Source of the DNA: Microcoleaceae cyanobacterium
Lineage (GTDB): Bacteria; Cyanobacteriota; Cyanobacteriia; Cyanobacteriales; Microcoleaceae
Assembly (NCBI GenBank): GCA_051652765.1
Contig: JBOFUV010000030.1
Coordinates: 1 to 28,646 of the forward strand
Direction of reading: 5' to 3'
DNA length: 28,646 bases
Shown here: positions 1 to 6,319 of the stretch, piece by piece
How the letters are laid out: every line of letters begins with the position of its first letter
How positions within the stretch are numbered: position 1 is the first letter of the stretch
The notes under the pieces: generated by a model
What the model was told of the DNA's origin: nothing
What the model saw: the letters and a program-made list of their open reading frames with translations, nothing else
The model's database searches: none
Made by a program: the position numbers and the translations under genes

Positions 1-278
1 GCAATATCAATCCATTCGCAGGAATTTTACTCGCCGCTATTTGTGTTGCCGCAGGATTTGGAGCGATACGGATTCTTATGGGAATAGTAGATTTCATCAA
101 AAATCCTTCACGTCCTCGTATTGGAGGTGGCTGGGGTGGTTATGGATCTGCTGGCTGCGGAGGCTGGGGTGGGGGTGATTCTGGTAGTCATAATTCTAGT
201 GACTCTGGTGGTAATGACGGCGGCAGTGGTTGCAGTGGCGGCGGGGGTTGCGGTGGCGGAGGTTGTGGCGGTGGATAG
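1..278 (+). CDS. 3' end of a membrane protein with a Gly/Ser/Cys-rich C-terminal tail (partial; probable cassette gene)
   Basis: Frame is open from base 3 (NINPFAGILLAAICVAAGFGAIRILMG...: hydrophobic helix) to TAG at 276-278 and ends GGSGCSGGGGCGGGGCGGG. An attC-like site starts 3 nt after the stop. Confidence 0.75.
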   Translation, partial: NINPFAGILLAAICVAAGFGAIRILMGIVDFIKNPSRPRIGGGWGGYGSAGCGGWGGGDSGSHNSSDSGGNDGGSGCSGGGGCGGGGCGGG

Positions 279-280
279 CC

Positions 281-366
281 GTATAATAATTCGCTTGGAG
301 CGGACTGCCGAAAGATGTTGGTGCATTGCAAAAGTTGTTCGCAGCCGCTCAAGCGCACCGTTATCT
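281..366 (+). repeat. attC-like site 1 (86 nt)
   Basis: R'' GTATAAT (AAC>AAT) at 281-287, R' GTTATCT at 360-366. Left arm CGCTTG[G]AGCGG[A]CTGC[C]GAA pairs with right arm TTCGCAGCCGCTCAAGCG, leaving three single unpaired bases, as expected for attC extrahelical bases. Confidence 0.85.
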
Positions 367-491
367 TGCCAGCGCACCACAGCTTCCCTGTGGAGTTGAA
401 CCGAAGGGCGACTGACTATGGTGAGAGAGGGTTTGCATCATCTGCGCTGGTCGTTTTGCTGAGTTAAGAGACAGTTAGCTTGACTTGGGCG

Positions 492-559
492 GGCTAACCA
501 ATCACTGCACCCGACCTGCAATAGTACTATTGGATTAGTCCAAAAGCTATCTGTTAAGA
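492..559 (+). repeat. Truncated attC-like site (left arm only)
   Basis: GGCTAAC-CAATC-ACTGCACCCGAC matches the left-arm layout of the other sites (GGCTAAC-AATTC-AAATGCAGCGGAC). No complementary right arm is present; the sequence runs into GTTAAGA at 553-559. Confidence 0.55.
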
Positions 560-603
560 CAGTGCTTCTAGGCTATCTGCTGTGCCCGGTACGTCCTTTT
601 TCG

Positions 604-612
604 TGGTAAGAT
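604..612 (+). promoter_or_regulatory. Putative extended -10 promoter of the R-M operon
   Basis: TGgTAAGAT, 37 nt upstream of the methyltransferase ATG. Confidence 0.4.
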
Positions 613-649
613 GAAGCGCTACATGTAGTGTGGCTGGAATAACCTTACT

Positions 650-1657
650 ATGGCAGAGCAACTGGTTCTCCCCTTTCTGAAAAACTCTACATTCCTGACG
701 ACTGTTGAGCTATGCGCTGGTGCTGGTGGACAAGCACTGGGATTACATTCAGCAGGGTTTCACCATCTTGCTCTTGTTGATAATGATCAAAGCTGTATAA
801 CTACGCTGCAAGAAAATTTCAAGGGAGTTAATGTTTATTTAGAAGATCTCAAAACATGGAATGCTAAACCTTTTGAAGGTGTTGATTTATTAGCGGCTGG
901 TTTACCTTGCCCTCCATTTTCAAAAGCAGGTAAGCAACTTGGTTCTAATGATGAAAGGAATCTTTTCCCTTCAATACTAGACATCATAAGCGAGGTAAAA
1001 CCCAGAGGAATCATGATCGAGAATGTCCCTGGATTATTAGAACCTAGATTTGAAGAATTTAGATCTAATTTTCAAGAGCAACTTCGGAAGATGGGTTACA
1101 CTCCTGCCTGGAAGTTATTAAATGCTTGTGACTATGGTGTTTCTCAGTTACGACCGCGTGTTGTACTAATTGCACTTAAAAAGGATTTAGCTTCAAATTT
1201 TTCTTGGTCTCGACCTCTGAAGAGTGATCCTCCTACTGTTGGCGAAGCTCTTTATGATTTAATGGCTGAGAATGGGTGGGGAAAAGTTGATGAATGGAAG
1301 CAGAAAGCCAACAAAATTGCGCCTACCTTGGTTGGAGGAAGTAAAAAGCACGGTGGTCCTGATCTTGGACCAACAAGGGCTAAGAAAGCATGGGCATCTC
1401 TAGGAGTTAATGGACATTTAATAGCCCAGTCAGCACCCCAACCTGATTTTGATGGCAATCCCTATTTAACAGTTAAAATGTGCGCTAGACTTCAAGGCTT
1501 TCCTGATAGCTGGTTCTTCTCAGGTAAGAAAACGGCTGCATATAGGCAGGTTGGTAACGCTTTTCCCCCACCCGTTGCGGCAACGATAGGAAGAGAATTA
1601 TTTAGAGTACTTACAACGACTAAAAAAGTGTTCGCAATTAGTTCTAACCTCAGTTGA
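650..1657 (+). CDS. C5-cytosine DNA methyltransferase (type II R-M; M.NaeI/M.NgoMIV-like)
   Basis: Motifs I (ELCAGAGG), IV (GLPCPPFS), VI (ENVPG), VIII (QLRPR), IX (RLQGFPD) and X (YRQVGNA). The variable region GGSKKHGGPDLGPTRAK resembles GCCGGC-specific methyltransferases (from recall). Confidence 0.95.
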   Translation: MAEQLVLPFLKNSTFLTTVELCAGAGGQALGLHSAGFHHLALVDNDQSCITTLQENFKGVNVYLEDLKTWNAKPFEGVDLLAAGLPCPPFSKAGKQLGSNDERNLFPSILDIISEVKPRGIMIENVPGLLEPRFEEFRSNFQEQLRKMGYTPAWKLLNACDYGVSQLRPRVVLIALKKDLASNFSWSRPLKSDPPTVGEALYDLMAENGWGKVDEWKQKANKIAPTLVGGSKKHGGPDLGPTRAKKAWASLGVNGHLIAQSAPQPDFDGNPYLTVKMCARLQGFPDSWFFSGKKTAAYRQVGNAFPPPVAATIGRELFRVLTTTKKVFAISSNLS

Positions 1658-1658
1658 T

Positions 1659-2495
1659 ATGCCAAGAGTACCTACAAATAACCGTAATGCAGAAGCAGCA
1701 GTACAAGCATTCATAAATGATTTAACTAATAGAGGTTGGGGGCTAAGTGAGGCGTGGCTTGCTATTTCTAGGCAGCTTATGACCTGTGAGATATGGGATG
1801 AACTTAGAAAGACTTGGGTGCGGTATTACAATCAGCCTGTTTTACGAGAAAGGAACGACTACAAACTTTTAGCTAATAGTAGTCCGAATCAGGCTCTACA
1901 GGAGTCTACTCTTGTTGGTGATTACATTGCCCAAGAATTGAATATTCCCAGGGAAAATTTATGTGATGAGCTTGGCATATTCATGAAGGCATTGTCTATT
2001 CAGCCCAATAATCCTAGAGGGCATTCTTTCCGCTCTATTATTGCAGAGGTTTTGGCGCGATATAGTGATCCTCAGATCACTGTGCGAGAGGAAGTCAATC
2101 CCTATATTTTATTTTCAGGTAGTCAATTTAATCTTCGCTCTAAGAATCCCAGAATAGATATTGTTGCATATCGCAATAATCTTCCAGTTGCTCTCTGTTC
2201 GACTCGATGGACTTATCGCCATGACCGAGTTGACTTACTTGAAGAAGCCAGAGCTTATATGAATGCTGCTAAGGAGCTTAATCCTAATATTCACTTCTTT
2301 GGCATAACGGCAGAAATGAACCCTGCACGTCTTAAAAAGGTTGTCGCTCAGACTCTACCATTGATACCGTCTGCTGATGTTGACTATCTTGTACATTTAC
2401 ATGCACCTTTAGCTACAACGGTCGTAAACCACAATGGAGATTTAGTTCATCTTCTAGATCTCGTAGATTGGGTCAATAGCTCCCATACTTGGTAA
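1659..2495 (+). CDS. Putative type II restriction endonuclease, PD-(D/E)xK fold, CCGG-family-like
   Basis: Starts 1 nt after the MTase stop. Contains RIDIV...STRWTYRHDRVDLLEE, resembling the S-x-K-W-T-x-R-x-D-R...E motif of NgoMIV/Cfr10I/Ecl18kI-type enzymes. Confidence 0.7.
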   Translation: MPRVPTNNRNAEAAVQAFINDLTNRGWGLSEAWLAISRQLMTCEIWDELRKTWVRYYNQPVLRERNDYKLLANSSPNQALQESTLVGDYIAQELNIPRENLCDELGIFMKALSIQPNNPRGHSFRSIIAEVLARYSDPQITVREEVNPYILFSGSQFNLRSKNPRIDIVAYRNNLPVALCSTRWTYRHDRVDLLEEARAYMNAAKELNPNIHFFGITAEMNPARLKKVVAQTLPLIPSADVDYLVHLHAPLATTVVNHNGDLVHLLDLVDWVNSSHTW

Positions 2496-2519
2496 TAAGT
2501 GATGAGGTGTACGACAGCC

Positions 2520-2605
2520 AGCTAACAATGCGTTGGTGCGGACGGTATAAAGTCTGTCGTCGGGAGTTAGAGGTTACTAGCCGCCGCTGACTGGGAACGT
2601 TAGCC
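2520..2605 (+). repeat. attC-like site 2 (86 nt)
   Basis: R'' AGCTAAC at 2520-2526, R' GTTAGCC at 2599-2605, internal GCGG(AC)...GCCGCCGCTGA. Same length as site 1, 24 nt after the REase stop. L-box pairing is imperfect. Confidence 0.75.
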
Positions 2606-2725
2606 TGCTTCTCCGATAGGTTTTTGAGTTGGTTAGAATCTGGGGATAGGGTAGTTTGGGGTTTCACAGTCATTTAGTGGGTGACGCGATCGCCCAGCAT
2701 GATTTCAATCTTGAGGAAGATAATT

Positions 2726-2803
2726 ATGGCACAGCAGTTTTCGGGTACGGTTCAGATTTTGAACACCTCATCAGGCTCACCCACAGTTGTGCTTGACTGT
2801 TGA
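2726..2803 (+). pseudogene. Short ORF, probable truncated cassette gene (MAQQFSGTVQILNTSSGSPTVVLDC)
   Basis: GAGGA RBS-like motif before ATG 2726 and a -10-like TAGAAT at 2634-2639, but only 25 codons; followed by GTTAGAT at 2812. Confidence 0.35.
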
Positions 2804-2863
2804 GGGATTCAGTTAGATGTGGTTACAGGTTAAACTGGGGACAGATAAGCAACTTCCTCACCA

Positions 2864-3100
2864 ATGCCTACGGTTCTTCAGGTTGGGCCTTATAGTTTCA
2901 TCTTTTTCAGCTCTGATAGAGGTGAACCAGCTCATATTCACGTTAAGCGAGATCGGCAGTTAGCTAAGTTTTGGCTTAGTCCTGTTTCTTTAGAAAAGAA
3001 TCGAGAGTTTAAAGACCACGAATTAAATGATATTTCCCAGCTTGTGGAGGAACACGAACAAACACTATTGGAGGCTTGGCATGACTACTTTGACGTTTGA
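2864..3100 (+). CDS. DUF4160 family protein (HicA-like putative toxin)
   Basis: MPTVL...FFSSDRGEPAHIHV...AKFWL...LLEAWHDYF signature; overlaps the downstream DUF2442 gene. Confidence 0.9.
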   Translation: MPTVLQVGPYSFIFFSSDRGEPAHIHVKRDRQLAKFWLSPVSLEKNREFKDHELNDISQLVEEHEQTLLEAWHDYFDV

Positions 3101-3422
3101 GACAGAACCTCTTGCAGCACAGGTTAGACTAATCGATGAAAAGCTAATTGTAGACTTGATCGATGGACGAAGTTTAATTGTTCCCTTATCTTGGTATCCC
3201 CGTTTGCTCAATGCCTCTCAAGAGGAGCGACAAAACTGGCAACTCTTAGGAGATGGTTACGCAATCGAGTGGGTTGATTTGGACGAACATATTGGTGTTG
3301 AAGGTCTGCTAGCAGGTAGACAGAGCGGTGAAAGCCATCATTCTTTTGAACGTTGGCTGGCGACACGAGGCATTTCTTCACAGCTTAATCGGGCTAACAA
3401 TTCAAATGCAGCGGACAGTTGA
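3081..3422 (+). CDS. DUF2442 family protein (putative antitoxin)
   Basis: L-x-DGR-x-L-x-VPLSWYPRLLNAS...R-x-NW...IEW-x-DLDEHI-x-VEGLL signature. ATG 3081 is preceded by GGAGG. The C-terminus reads into attC site 3. Confidence 0.9.
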   Translation: MTTLTFETEPLAAQVRLIDEKLIVDLIDGRSLIVPLSWYPRLLNASQEERQNWQLLGDGYAIEWVDLDEHIGVEGLLAGRQSGESHHSFERWLATRGISSQLNRANNSNAADS

Positions 3423-3478
3423 GAGGTGCTGGTGCTGAATTTGAGTTCAACTGCCGCCGCTGAACTCAATCGTTATGC
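3392..3478 (+). repeat. attC-like site 3 (87 nt)
   Basis: R'' GGCTAAC at 3392-3398, R' GTTATGC at 3472-3478. CAGCGG/CCGCTG and CAGTTGA/TCAACTG arms pair. Confidence 0.85.
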
Positions 3479-3546
3479 AGCTCAGGCTGTTGGTTGGGAC
3501 GGTAGCCTGAAGGTTATCTTTATAGTGCTGATTGGGACTATAATTT

Positions 3547-3939
3547 ATGCAAATCATCGCTTCTGCTATCTCACTCAATGTTGATGATGTCACCGCATCC
3601 GCCACATTCGCCAAGCAACACTTCGGCTTTAGCGAGGAAATGTCAGCCGATGGCTTTGTGTCACTCTCTAGGAAAGATATTGGGTTTAACCTAATTTTCC
3701 TGAGAACTGGGTTGGAAAGCTTCAAGCCAATCCATCTGCGCGGACATCAAGCAGACGGTTTGCTGATTGTTTTAGTGGTGGACGACATCGATACAGAATA
3801 TGAGCGAATACAAGCAGAAGGGGTAACGATTACGACTGCAATTGAAACCGAACCCTGGGGTGAACGATTCTTTCAAGTCAGCGATCCAAATGGTGTTGTG
3901 ATTCAACTTGTCCAGTGGATGACAGAGCCAACTCAGTAA
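3547..3939 (+). CDS. VOC / glyoxalase-bleomycin resistance family protein
   Basis: ISLNVDDV...VVDDID...EGV...TEPWGERFFQVSDPNGVVIQL motifs. Confidence 0.9.
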   Translation: MQIIASAISLNVDDVTASATFAKQHFGFSEEMSADGFVSLSRKDIGFNLIFLRTGLESFKPIHLRGHQADGLLIVLVVDDIDTEYERIQAEGVTITTAIETEPWGERFFQVSDPNGVVIQLVQWMTEPTQ

Positions 3940-3992
3940 TCGTGATCTAAGATTGTGTAAATGGCAAGAACACAATGCCAATAATTCCAATT

Positions 3993-4223
3993 ATGAACTA
4001 CAGAAACTACATCACGATCGAACCCAATAAACGCGGTGGTAAGCCTTGTGTACGTGGCTTGCGAATTACGGTTTATGAAGTGCTTGAGTACCTAGCTTCC
4101 GAGATGACCGAAGCAGAAATTCTCGACGATTTTCCCGATCTGACACGAGAAGATTTAAAAGCCTGTATTGCTTATGCTGCTGACCGTGAGCGTCGGTTTA
4201 TGACCGCTCCATTATCCGCATGA
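3993..4223 (+). CDS. DUF433 family antitoxin (VapB45-like)
   Basis: ITIEPNKRGGKPCVRGLRITV...EILDDFPDLTREDLKAC. ATG 3993 preferred over 3975. Confidence 0.92.
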   Translation: MNYRNYITIEPNKRGGKPCVRGLRITVYEVLEYLASEMTEAEILDDFPDLTREDLKACIAYAADRERRFMTAPLSA

Positions 4224-4465
4224 AATTACTGTTTGATGAAAACTTATCGCCTAAATTGCCGAACCGTTTGAGCGATCTTTTCCCAAACTCGCTTCACGTT
4301 CGAGATGTGGGCATGAAAGCAACAATCGACCCAATAGTTTGGGATTATGCAAAAGACAATGATTTGATGATTGTCTCGAAGGATGCTGACATGCACGATC
4401 TGAGCTTAGTATTTGGGAATCCGCCAAAAGTCATTTGGCTTCGACTGGGAACCGATCCTTCCTGA
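4220..4465 (+). pseudogene. DUF5615 PIN-like toxin (VapC45-like), probably 3'-truncated
   Basis: MKLLFDENLS...IVSKDAD...PPKVIWLRLG then an abrupt TDPS-stop at 81 aa; family members normally continue further. ATGA overlap with DUF433. Confidence 0.75.
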
Positions 4466-4570
4466 TTTATGAGTGGTTAACCTGGATTCCGTAACCCTGG
4501 AGCAGTATTATTGGCCTGATTTTTCTAGCCAGTACTGCCCAAGCAGTTGCCGAATAAACTGTAGGATAGA

Positions 4571-5029
4571 CTAGGACGCGGCCTTTAGGGAATAGTCAGT
4601 CACTTCAATATCGAGTAGCTCAGTCACCACATCAATAGGAATATCCATGATCTGCCAAAGATGTCTGAGGAATTCTTTCTCCTGGATCAATGGCGGGCCA
4701 TCAATGAGCACCAGATCGGTTGCGACTCTAAAGGCACTTTCTTGATAGTCCGCAGGCAGAGATTCTCGGGCGATCGCGACCAAAGGTTCAATTCCTCGGG
4801 TAGACAGCAGATTAAACAAATCCTCCAGCATTTCTCGCAAACGTTGCTCTGAATAGTCCGTAAATAACGGTTGAACCAGCAAAAGATCAACAATCCGCTG
4901 CCTCTCCACCCCAGAAAGATAGCCATCGGCGGCGATCGCTGCTACTCCAATGGCGGCAAAAGCCTCCGATGGGGACAAGGAAACCCGATCCCCATCTTGA
5001 CTCCTAAAAACAATACTGAAAAGACTCAC
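4571..5029 (-). CDS. Tellurite resistance TerB family protein
   Basis: LSPSEAFAAI...AIAADG...E...AFRVATDLVLIDG...EKEFL motifs. Confidence 0.8.
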   Translation of the reverse strand: MSLFSIVFRSQDGDRVSLSPSEAFAAIGVAAIAADGYLSGVERQRIVDLLLVQPLFTDYSEQRLREMLEDLFNLLSTRGIEPLVAIARESLPADYQESAFRVATDLVLIDGPPLIQEKEFLRHLWQIMDIPIDVVTELLDIEVTDYSLKAAS

Positions 5030-5118
5030 CTGAGATCAATTCTCCTTGGTTCAGAACAAGTTAAATTTGTTCTATCCTAGCTGCGATTTCCAAACCTGGC
5101 AATTAGACCTATGCCAGA

Positions 5119-5478
5119 TTATCGATTTGAGCCATTGGGAGCGCCTGGTAATACCATCCCCTCAGCCGCCATACGATAGGGTTCAACGGCATCATTAAAG
5201 TCAATAGGCAGCACGGCAACAACGTTTTCATGGGGACGAGGAATGATCACCCAAGTTTCTAGGGTTCCACCGTAGACTTTCTCAACGGCAGCAATTCCTG
5301 CGTCCATTGAAGTTTTAACTTCTGAGACATCACCCCGAATCATGATGGTAAACCGCGCACTTCCGGCTCGAATGTATCCAACCAGAGTCACTCGACCTGC
5401 TTTGACCATCGCATCAGCAGCAGCTAAAATGCCTGGAAATCCCTTGGTTTCGAGTGCTCCAACGGCTTGTTGTGACAT
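5119..5478 (-). CDS. ccmK4: Carboxysome shell protein CcmK4
   Basis: BMC domain AVGALETKGFPGILAAADAMVKAGRVT...GSARF...IPRPHENV; downstream partner of ccmK3; GGAGA RBS before ATG 5478. Confidence 0.92.
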   Translation of the reverse strand: MSQQAVGALETKGFPGILAAADAMVKAGRVTLVGYIRAGSARFTIMIRGDVSEVKTSMDAGIAAVEKVYGGTLETWVIIPRPHENVVAVLPIDFNDAVEPYRMAAEGMVLPGAPNGSNR

Positions 5479-5610
5479 GCAAATTTCTCCTGAGTGAATC
5501 AAACGCTGTAGGGGGTCGCGTTCTTATTGTAGAAAGATTAGGGAACCTCTGACTAAGTTAGAAGTTATATTAAGGACAAGTATTGCTAATCTGTCTTCCT
5601 ATCTGTTTTC

Positions 5611-5919
5611 CTAGGGCCTAAATGGTTCACTGACCTCCGTATAATCGATCGGCATTACCGCTTCCAAATTCTCCGGCGGATTGGGTACAATGTAATGAGT
5701 GATAACTGTACAGCCAAAAACCTTCTCTGCAGCTTCTACTCCCGCTTTCATCGCAGGCACAACTTCAGAAGTCCTACCTCGAATCGACACTAAAAACTCG
5801 CCTCTTTCTGCAAGTTCGAACTGCACCAATGTCACCTGGGCTGCTTTGACCATCGCATCAGCGGCAGCTAGTACGCCCGGAAATCCTAAAGTTTGAATCA
5901 CTCCAACTGCCTCTGGCAT
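5611..5919 (-). CDS. ccmK3: Carboxysome shell protein CcmK3
   Basis: BMC domain MPEAVGVIQTLGFPGVLAAADAMVKAA...VPNPPENL. Confidence 0.92.
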   Translation of the reverse strand: MPEAVGVIQTLGFPGVLAAADAMVKAAQVTLVQFELAERGEFLVSIRGRTSEVVPAMKAGVEAAEKVFGCTVITHYIVPNPPENLEAVMPIDYTEVSEPFRP

Positions 5920-6144
5920 GTCAAATTTTCCTAAACGTCCTGAAAATAGCTGATCTAGACAATATTCTACGGCAACCTCTGACTATAAACCTCACCCTCC
6001 CAGCTTTTCTTGATTCTGAGCCAAACTTGCCGTGGGTTAACACTCAGTTCAAAAGTCAGGAATCAGACAAGAATTCGGCTTGACCTAGACAGCCGTCCTA
6101 ACTGTCCTAGGATATTGAGGCCACACTGCATCTAAAATCCCTGG

Positions 6145-6192
6145 AAGGTTTAGAATTTTCAAGGGTTAGAGTTTTCAAGGGTTAGAATTTTC
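6145..6192. repeat. 3 x 16 bp tandem repeat (AAGGGTTAGAATTTTC)
   Basis: AAGGTTTAGAATTTTC / AAGGGTTAGAGTTTTC / AAGGGTTAGAATTTTC in the divergent ccmK3-kinase intergenic region. Confidence 0.9.
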
Positions 6193-6319
6193 CTGCTTGA
6201 GAATTGGTAACGAGAAACAATTTGATAAAGTGACACCTTCGTTGATGACAAAACGGAATAGGAAGTGAACAATAAAGTCAAGGCAATTATTGTTCTTTCC
6301 GCGTGAGAGATAAAATCCC

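Follow-up and report, generated by a model that had tools for sequence, protein, structure and literature searches.

The stretch of DNA analysed here (the window) is the whole of contig JBOFUV010000030.1, 28,646 nt long and called C30 below, from the genome assembly GCA_051652765.1 (G000) of a Microcoleaceae cyanobacterium, and its left end is occupied by an array of integron gene cassettes with their attC recombination sites. We think it probable that the window holds most of a short array loaded by an integron integrase (IntI), and that the attI site at which it was loaded, which lies on contig C146, is one of 20 copies of an integron platform dispersed over this genome. The array behaves like a chromosomal integron with a dead integrase, formally an attC cluster devoid of integrases (CALIN). 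The assembly comprises 5.04 Mb in 158 contigs with a completeness rating of 99.97%, and its BMC-domain genes and 3231 GCGATCGC sites are consistent with a cyanobacterium. Since the window is an entire contig, the assembly holds nothing to the left of base 1.

A sequence-only reading of the window had described three imperfect palindromes of 86, 86 and 87 nt with a common layout as attC sites (attC 1 to 3, Table 1), and this description stands, with 74% mean column identity across their alignment. A profile built from the three sites and iterated over the 5.04-Mb genome returned 88 attC sites at a cut-off of E<=1e-3, against none in the reversed genome; they are spread over 34 contigs in 38 clusters, each with 1-5 sites, and are homogeneous in length across the genome. 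Most genes share the orientation of their sites, a random orientation having been named by the same reading as evidence against attC: the longest open reading frame (ORF) upstream points the same way as the site in 60 of the 88 cases and the opposite way in 12, with none present in the remaining 16. When the 55 full-length sites lying in retrieved loci were examined for covariation, the attC fold (R''/R' and L''/L' helices with two unpaired left-arm bases) had 86.6% of its cells paired, with changes on both sides at 14 of 19 pairs; none of 500 shuffles reached this value and slid controls gave 29-48%, an advantage that stems in part from the fold having been drawn from the tested sequences themselves. 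The L''/L' stem, set off from R by an unpaired spacer, was 90.3% paired, with double changes at 10 of its 12 pairs, and the AAC/GTT pairs of the R'' (RYYYAAC) and R' (GTTRRRY) cores were retained in 52-54 of the 55 sites, AAT replacing AAC in attC 1. The extrahelical bases form T-N6-C on the bottom strand and correspond in attC 1 to G297 and A304, the single unpaired left-arm bases that had been noticed from the letters alone; T-N6-C sites are of the type excised by integrases (PMC3053210; here and below, cited statements refer to the accessible portions of each paper). Minimum free energy folding of the bottom strand against shuffles was significant for attC 1 only (z -3.0, as against -0.35 for attC 2 and -1.8 for attC 3), and no Rfam family matched in window positions 1-6000. 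Judged by their sequence, the repeats of the window are genuine attC sites, whose folded bottom strand is predicted to be recombined by IntI.

Cassette mobility has left traces at the same crossover points. In 46 adjacent attC pairs less than 3 kb apart, R'' was compared over 8 bases with the start of its own and of the next cassette, and it matched its own start better in 35 pairs, worse in 5 and equally well in 6 (on average 5.72 against 3.96 of 8 bases; random starts scored 3.59, and no more than 4.30 in any of 5000 draws; Wilcoxon p 1.3e-6). The restriction-modification (R-M) cassette of the window is found intact in a Leptolyngbyaceae metagenome-assembled genome (locus L235), between two intact attC sites and ahead of a different cassette, and the cassette start predicted from the R'' in the window occurs there exactly; at another locus, L236, the R-M genes are present without an attC match. 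Metagenome contigs from three studies start at 3466-3472, which is the crossover of attC 3, and since those of two studies run via the glyoxalase gene into DUF433 (the third spans 3472-3873), these genes belong to one cassette. The cassettes of the window are mobile units bounded at G|TT and found with different neighbours.

The integrase itself is missing. A profile search of the draft assembly gave no IntI above the TIGR02249 cut-off, and with the IntI proteins of relatives as queries no catalytic C-terminal half was found either, the pieces reaching residue 117 at most; two C-terminal matches, 38-46% identical, resemble other tyrosine recombinases. The genome-wide search for an IntI-type recombinase that had been suggested from the sequence alone thus came out empty. 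The accompanying suggestion of a CALIN serviced in trans holds as to the class of element, and with no IntI in the assembly any service in trans must lie in the past or come from incoming DNA.

What the genome does retain are platforms. The DNA upstream of a near-full intI in the congener G002 matches about 19 loci of G000, and the attI motif (TAATAACTA G|TT) is present in 20 copies on 19 contigs, its conservation stopping at G|TT, behind which 19 different first cassettes follow. Half of the copies (10 of 20) lie more than 4 kb from both contig ends, two lie on one 220-kb contig, and the flanks are different core genes. The same motif adjoins intI in G002 (near-full) and G017 (full-length), in agreement with the attI position of complete integrons, between a divergent intI and the first cassette. 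In 12 of the 20 copies attI is preceded by intI codons 1-21, ending at an identical breakpoint base, by a common 65-bp link and by a 22-bp tandem repeat; four others have stubs of 24, 34, 58 and 117 codons, three have no stub and one is cut by a contig end. Between stub and attI stand about six imperfect palindromes at ~40-bp spacing (TTATAC.GAAA.TTTC.GTATAA, for instance in the C17 platform, L090:443-742), which are also present upstream of intact intI genes in metagenome loci and are candidate binding sites for IntI or a regulator; five platform copies are shortened by deletions between them. As for the 38 attC clusters, 16 have an attI upstream, 10 a contig end, and 12 are internal without attI. 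The Pc promoter consensus gave one match in one platform, with 1.6 expected by chance. A platform tree had one well-supported inner branch out of 18 and is used here for distinguishing two haplotypes only. The 22-bp repeat is found at about 23 loci with GATCAA in phase, in up to 17 copies (e.g. L102:553-1072 on C67), including 44-bp variants with a short palindrome; most of these arrays lie beside integron debris and a few stand alone (C63, C109, C145). It is also present on C107 of G002, and its spacing is iteron-like.

Beside the array of the window, within this draft assembly, there is no intact intI with the IntI-specific insertion such as would make a complete integron. With three full and one partial attC and only a stub nearby, the array agrees with the definition of a CALIN (at least two attC, no intI within 4 kb); it differs from sedentary chromosomal integrons, which have a conserved locus or more than 19 attC per array, in that the locus is empty in G001 and G002 and the largest cluster of the genome has five sites.

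The evidence that the window had its own platform comes from a comparison with these two congeners, in which the conserved host gene forming the right flank of the array directly adjoins a glycosyltransferase gene, the array being absent. In G000 the glycosyltransferase gene lies on C146, followed by repeats, an intI stub, attI and, at the contig end, the first 54 codons of a Gly-rich gene. Alignment with homologues identifies this piece and window 3-278 as the two ends of one ~300-aa protein, and 10 of 11 bases in R'' of attC 1 are complementary to the start of the cassette behind the attI of C146. The Gly-rich cassette exists in two copies, with C146 and C132 stopping at the same base and C30 and C21 starting at the same base; synteny favours C146 as most likely the left neighbour of the window. 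Given this join, which we infer from synteny and the split gene, about 450 bp would be missing; attI would then most likely be found some 0.75 kb to the left of base 1, and the array would be short and complete. None of 14 DNA sequencing runs, each represented by a small share, spans the join, and no RNA run was among those listed. The view that the window is the distal end of an array, with intI and attI to its left, is thus most likely right for attI; of intI there is only a 21-codon stub, and the array is probably not the tail of a longer one.

Other genomes show related arrangements. A covariance model of attC trained on G000, the check that had been proposed with the attC interpretation, found matches in 25 of 41 genomes when up to 108 candidates were scored in each (G000 83, G036 24, G002 19, G032 18, G001 0). 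G002 has seven attI matches (0-2 mismatches), stubs of varying length and one near-full intI with a stop, and on its contig C63 (L053:2614-2902) intI codon 70 contains a G|TT to which an attC is joined with base precision, so that the integrase seems here to have recombined into the gene that encodes it. Platforms and common cassettes of G000 are 84-93% identical to those of G002, compared with ~70-76% for the flanking genes. The near-complete genome G028, from the same order and in two contigs, contains homologous platforms at 963 kb and at 3084 kb. In both, intI is cut and an array of 3-4 attC is present, and G028 has another two stubs besides, so that the layout is in general no assembly artefact. 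Within the order, 23 of 251 genomes have an IntI above the cut-off, and N-terminal IntI pieces are frequent among the order-wide matches, a frequency confounded by contig ends. In G016 (C1:4478000-4501000, L056-L058) there is a tandem of five intI copies or stubs; all have an attI, their cassettes differ, and three of them are preceded by the same PIN toxin-antitoxin (TA) cassette and a scrap, which we take to resemble the end of prfA. We considered this tandem as proof of whole-integron circles made by the integrase and rejected it as ambiguous, the repeated boundary being a common cassette start. In genus g64, seven near-full intI matches each have one in-frame TAG, either a shared nonsense codon or a terminal stop.

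That cassettes were loaded by IntI at attI follows from these footprints and from established integron biology: the integrase would have recombined the attC bottom strand with the attI on C146, with crossover at G|TT. A platform copy would consist of a 5' intI stub, the spaced palindromes and attI, to which 12 copies add the 22-bp repeat and the codon-21 breakpoint. As to how the platforms multiplied, the integrase may have cut between attC and a site upstream of attI, so that platform-plus-cassette units would have moved as circles, been re-inserted elsewhere and then been mixed by homologous recombination; we give such circles somewhat less than an even chance, and only tentatively suggest a distributed integron, in which the platform itself, made up of promoter region, attI and intI stub, is a mobile unit that the integrase excises and re-inserts as it does a cassette, with about 20 independent docking sites per chromosome loaded in trans by a transient integrase. 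There are hints of circles: a scrap from the left flank of other platforms stands at the right end of the array in the window and points the same way, which is what a circular permutation would produce, and on C116, C61 and C138 an attC is found directly upstream of repeats or stub. The attC joined to intI codon 70 in G002 speaks for the same route. Both insertion and imprecise excision by IntI are known to take place at GWT sites (10.1101/2022.09.11.507474). By eye, 7 of 12 platform left ends lie at G|WT, a count that a k-mer walk did not reproduce, and each 22-bp unit holds two GWT. Several observations weigh against parts of this account. Among the 12 intI breakpoints examined, just 1 is an attC/G|TT fusion; the breakpoint shared at codon 21 has C|AT and not G|WT, and the left ends of the platforms differ, the k-mer walk having failed to place them at G|WT. 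The shared truncation is found on two platform haplotypes and on one chimera (C103), so homologous exchange following the loading may account for its spread; to judge from its sequence, the chimera shows that such exchange occurred between platforms. The left neighbour of the window could be C132 instead of C146, and in the empty-site comparison the flanks of the arrays on C17, C34, C64, C82, C74 and C21 fall on different contigs in the draft congeners. Finally, the 158-contig assembly has its breaks at repeats, and an intact intI may therefore sit unassembled.

The platforms may have multiplied in other ways, and the routes by circles, by insertion sequences (IS) or repeats and by a sweeping deletion are not mutually exclusive. 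Whole integrons could have been copied to many loci and loaded in cis, without any loading in trans, after which one deletion allele, made up of repeats, 65-bp link and stub, took the place of intI in most copies through homologous recombination, with the repeats and the stub as the two points of exchange; the resulting anatomy would be the same. We regard this as a possibility to be taken seriously, if short of probable. It accords with the occurrence of the truncation on both haplotypes and the chimera, with C88 and C71, where the repeats meet intI elsewhere along its length (before the deletions they were probably located 3' of the gene), with the several near-full intI in tandem in G016 and the two full copies in G036, and with integrase inactivation being common (PMC3108266). 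About 12 separate conversion events would be required, however, and the repeat or the 65-bp link was present in 0 of 80 metagenome and 0 of 5 genome loci with a long intI relative, leaving the ancestor unseen; a separate search for it (repeats beside an intact intI) gave no exact match, near genomes possibly falling outside the search. It is rather unlikely, in our estimate, that the platforms spread without an integrase, by IS5-type transposition or by homologous or illegitimate recombination at the 22-bp repeats, for instance after natural transformation. Copies on C45, C67 and C101 begin with an IS5-like end, which we take to be of IS5 type from its translated transposase tail; repeat arrays stand at about 23 loci, some without a platform, and also in G002, and the high identity to G002 relative to the flanks points to horizontal exchange. 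However, we saw neither a common right end nor a target duplication; the IS end is absent from most copies, and the attC fused into the G002 intI is left unexplained. A composite IS5 transposon was rejected, no matching second end having been found.

The remaining alternatives concern the array rather than its multiplication. It is improbable that it is a plain CALIN, with cassettes inserted at genomic attG sites and no platform of its own: this would suit the 12 internal clusters without attI upstream and the fact that the C146 join is inferred and not sequenced, and the attG route has been demonstrated in E. coli (10.1101/2022.09.11.507474), yet an attI immediately to the left of the window is indicated by synteny and by the split Gly-rich cassette. 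Less probable still is that the window is the distal end of a single large chromosomal integron which the assembler or rearrangements have broken up. Ten of the 38 clusters do have a contig end upstream, and attC length is as homogeneous as in large chromosomal integrons; against this stand the 20 separate attI, half of them remote from contig ends and two on a single contig, the different core genes at their flanks and the lack of any intact intI. We find it hardly conceivable that the repeats are terminators or palindromes like repetitive extragenic palindromes or miniature inverted-repeat transposable elements rather than integrase sites, for although attC 2 and attC 3 fold no better than shuffles, clusters are headed by attI and intI stubs, the fold covaries, R'' is complementary to its own cassette start, the same cassettes recur with other neighbours, and no Rfam family is matched. 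We return, then, to an IntI-loaded array on a dispersed platform. The arrays are presumably frozen now unless an integrase arrives on foreign DNA, and TA and R-M cassettes would help to hold them.

The features of the window are collected in Table 1.

Table 1. Features of the window and their positions
Feature	Position	Strand	Remarks
Window, entire contig JBOFUV010000030.1 (C30), 28,646 nt	1-28,646	+	
Cassette 1 gene: C-terminal third (~residues 204-300) of a ~300-aa glycine-rich-domain protein	1-278	+	cut by contig end; homologue alignment
attC 1	281-366 (86 nt)	+	R'' 281-287; unpaired G297, A304; crossover G|TT 360/361
Gene-less cassette body	360-491	+	multi-copy in G000
Fourth attC, right-truncated, of gene-less cassette	492-555	+	iterated profile
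C5 cytosine DNA methyltransferase (predicted), 335 aa	650-1657	+	PF00145 E 3e-68; TIGR00675 above cut-off; PADLOC MTase_II/DruM2
Type II restriction endonuclease (predicted), CCGG-core fold group, 278 aa	1659-2495	+	no Pfam family; AlphaFold and Foldseek
attC 2	2520-2605 (86 nt)	+	crossover G|TT 2599/2600
DUF4160 and DUF2442 pair	2864-3422	+	Pfam; putative toxin-antitoxin module
attC 3	3392-3478 (87 nt)	+	crossover G|TT 3472/3473
Last cassette	3472-4451	+	glyoxalase/VOC 3547-3939, DUF433 3975-4223, DUF5615 PIN-like 4220-4465
Scrap of sequence found left of 22-bp repeats in other platforms	4477-4533	+	83-86% identity to C101, C50, C45, same orientation
Conserved host gene, right flank	4571-5029	-	no Pfam family

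The array contains about five cassettes: Gly-rich, gene-less, R-M, DUF4160/DUF2442 and a truncated glyoxalase-DUF433/DUF5615 cassette. The earlier interpretation as an attC-bounded cassette array with R-M and TA cargo is supported by covariation, Pfam, Foldseek, the own-start comparison and L235; to its description of three repeats at the 3' ends of plus-strand genes or operons are to be added the fourth, truncated attC and the overlap of attC 3 with the final 31 nt of the DUF2442 ORF.

The gene-less cassette has 18 BLAST matches in G000, with 92% column identity over 11 copies; cassette starts were located at 16 places, two of them immediately at attI and the others following a variety of attC sites. 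Among 300 other genomes of the order it has no real match, and a promoter scan of 270-700 found no sigma-70-like promoter above chance on the cassette strand. Its copies contain internal inverted repeats, and those on C68 and C50 carry an IS5-like insertion at the identical base. A group IIC-attC intron after attC 1 was considered and rejected, the sequence being this gene-less cassette with its own attC. Comparison with the intact cassette in L235 shows that the truncated attC is joined to the R-M cassette by a short deletion through TATCTG microhomology, which took the right half of the gene-less cassette's attC.

The two genes that follow are predicted to be a type II R-M pair, a C5 methyltransferase with a PD-(D/E)xK nuclease, and they stand together in both L235 and L236 as well. 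The AlphaFold model of the 278-aa nuclease (pLDDT 95) gave PspGI and NgoMIV as top Foldseek matches (E 2e-4, TM 0.40-0.45), followed by Bse634I, Ecl18kI, PfoI and Cfr10I. Many 6-bp palindromes are strongly rarer in the genome than expected (TGCGCA 1 vs 413, GCCGGC 3 vs 377, GTCGAC 5 vs 496 expected), in line with a long R-M history. GCCGGC was considered as the target of the nuclease and set aside, for a dozen other palindromes are likewise avoided and a target cannot be assigned in this way.

The DUF4160/DUF2442 pair, which gave a weak DhiT match only (E 0.1), and DUF433/DUF5615 are, we assume, TA-like modules. A short ORF remnant lies at 2701-2863, between attC 2 and the DUF4160 gene. The last cassette has lost its own attC, and its DUF5615 PIN-like gene (81 aa) is truncated, cut at 4451, beyond which homologues continue with different letters. 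Farther right, a 16-bp-period repeat in three copies (6145-6205) lies upstream of a 1080-aa sensor kinase gene, presumably of PAS/GAF type.

In 25 other array regions we surveyed 138 ORFs, of which 121 were sent to Pfam (17 short or overlapping ones being dropped). Matches include Mrr, HNH, NotI-like, type ISP, Uma2 and Cap4 with ABC-three-component parts, as well as PIN, ParE, PemK, HicA, GNAT and SDR, and 47 of the 121 have no Pfam family. The first cassette region of the C34 platform (L092:5052-8570) encodes an ABC-three-component defence system with a Cap4 nuclease, MC2 and an AAA ATPase; at L091:1383-5194, directly after attI, a type ISP R-M gene is interrupted by a DUF2281-PIN pair; and a transpeptidase/beta-lactamase-fold gene is borne on a cassette at the end of the C156 array (L097:753-1622).

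The origin of CALINs is an open question. Cury et al. screened intI pseudogenes with a profile of the IntI C-terminus (PMC4889954), so that N-terminal stubs were invisible to that survey, in which 95% of CALINs had no intI pseudogene; as far as the accessible text of the survey work goes, attI was searched for classes 1-3 only (PMC4889954, PMC9024848). Most platforms of G000 keep only 21-117 N-terminal intI codons and an attI and would escape such a profile, and an N-terminal IntI profile combined with clade-specific attI motifs would make CALIN origin testable across genomes. If the platform reading is true, many elements now called CALIN are headless platforms with a live attI. Twenty attI are also 20 first positions, and many cassettes could be expressed at once, unlike in one long, mostly silent array. 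Our analysis names, in addition, an attI motif for this clade of cyanobacterial integrases, together with a collection of cassettes for defence (R-M, Mrr, HNH, Cap4/ABC-three-component, TA).

Cyanobacterial arrays had been thought little studied. Integrons of cyanobacteria were noted by Cury et al. (PMC4889954), and a phylum-level Cyanobacteria attC covariance model exists (Ghaly et al. 2021, PMC8352920), so that integrons, attC sites and cassettes of this phylum are already in print; full-text searches, which reached few subscription papers and no supplements, found no paper devoted to cyanobacterial arrays as such, nor one on many attI-plus-stub platforms per chromosome. The arrays of G000 resemble the CALINs and single attC sites lacking integrases (SALINs) described before (PMC4889954, PMC9024848, 10.1101/2022.09.11.507474) in having clusters of 1-5 attC, no functional intI nearby and a genome that may lack IntI, and they differ in that an attI of their own lies upstream of 16 of 38 clusters, in most cases together with a 5' intI stub. 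With the sedentary integrons of Xanthomonas (10.1101/2025.06.18.660453) they share homogeneous attC sites, intI broken by deletions or stops, additional CALINs, gene-less cassettes, TA and R-M cargo and the exchange of cassettes between species; in Xanthomonas, however, there is one platform at one locus (ilvD), whereas here 20 attI platforms occupy different loci and are not shared with the congener at the one locus where this could be tested. Off-target and delta-attI activity, in which secondary GNT/GWT sites and attI fragments are recombined by IntI and DNA beyond the array is rearranged as a result, has been described for class 1/2 mobile integrons on plasmids and, in the accessible text, not as a multiplication of chromosomal platforms (PMC10127599, PMC12901181). 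The promoter cassettes of Vibrionaceae (10.1101/2023.11.21.568050) are, like our gene-less cassette, short, ORF-less and present in many copies in arrays, with an unrelated sequence. Up to four complete integrons per genome are known from Klebsiella (PMC9024848), and an archaeal metagenome-assembled genome has 107 attC over 18 contigs (10.1101/2022.02.06.479319). The array of the window alone is ordinary by comparison; the many attI platforms on one chromosome are an unusual arrangement of a well-known element.

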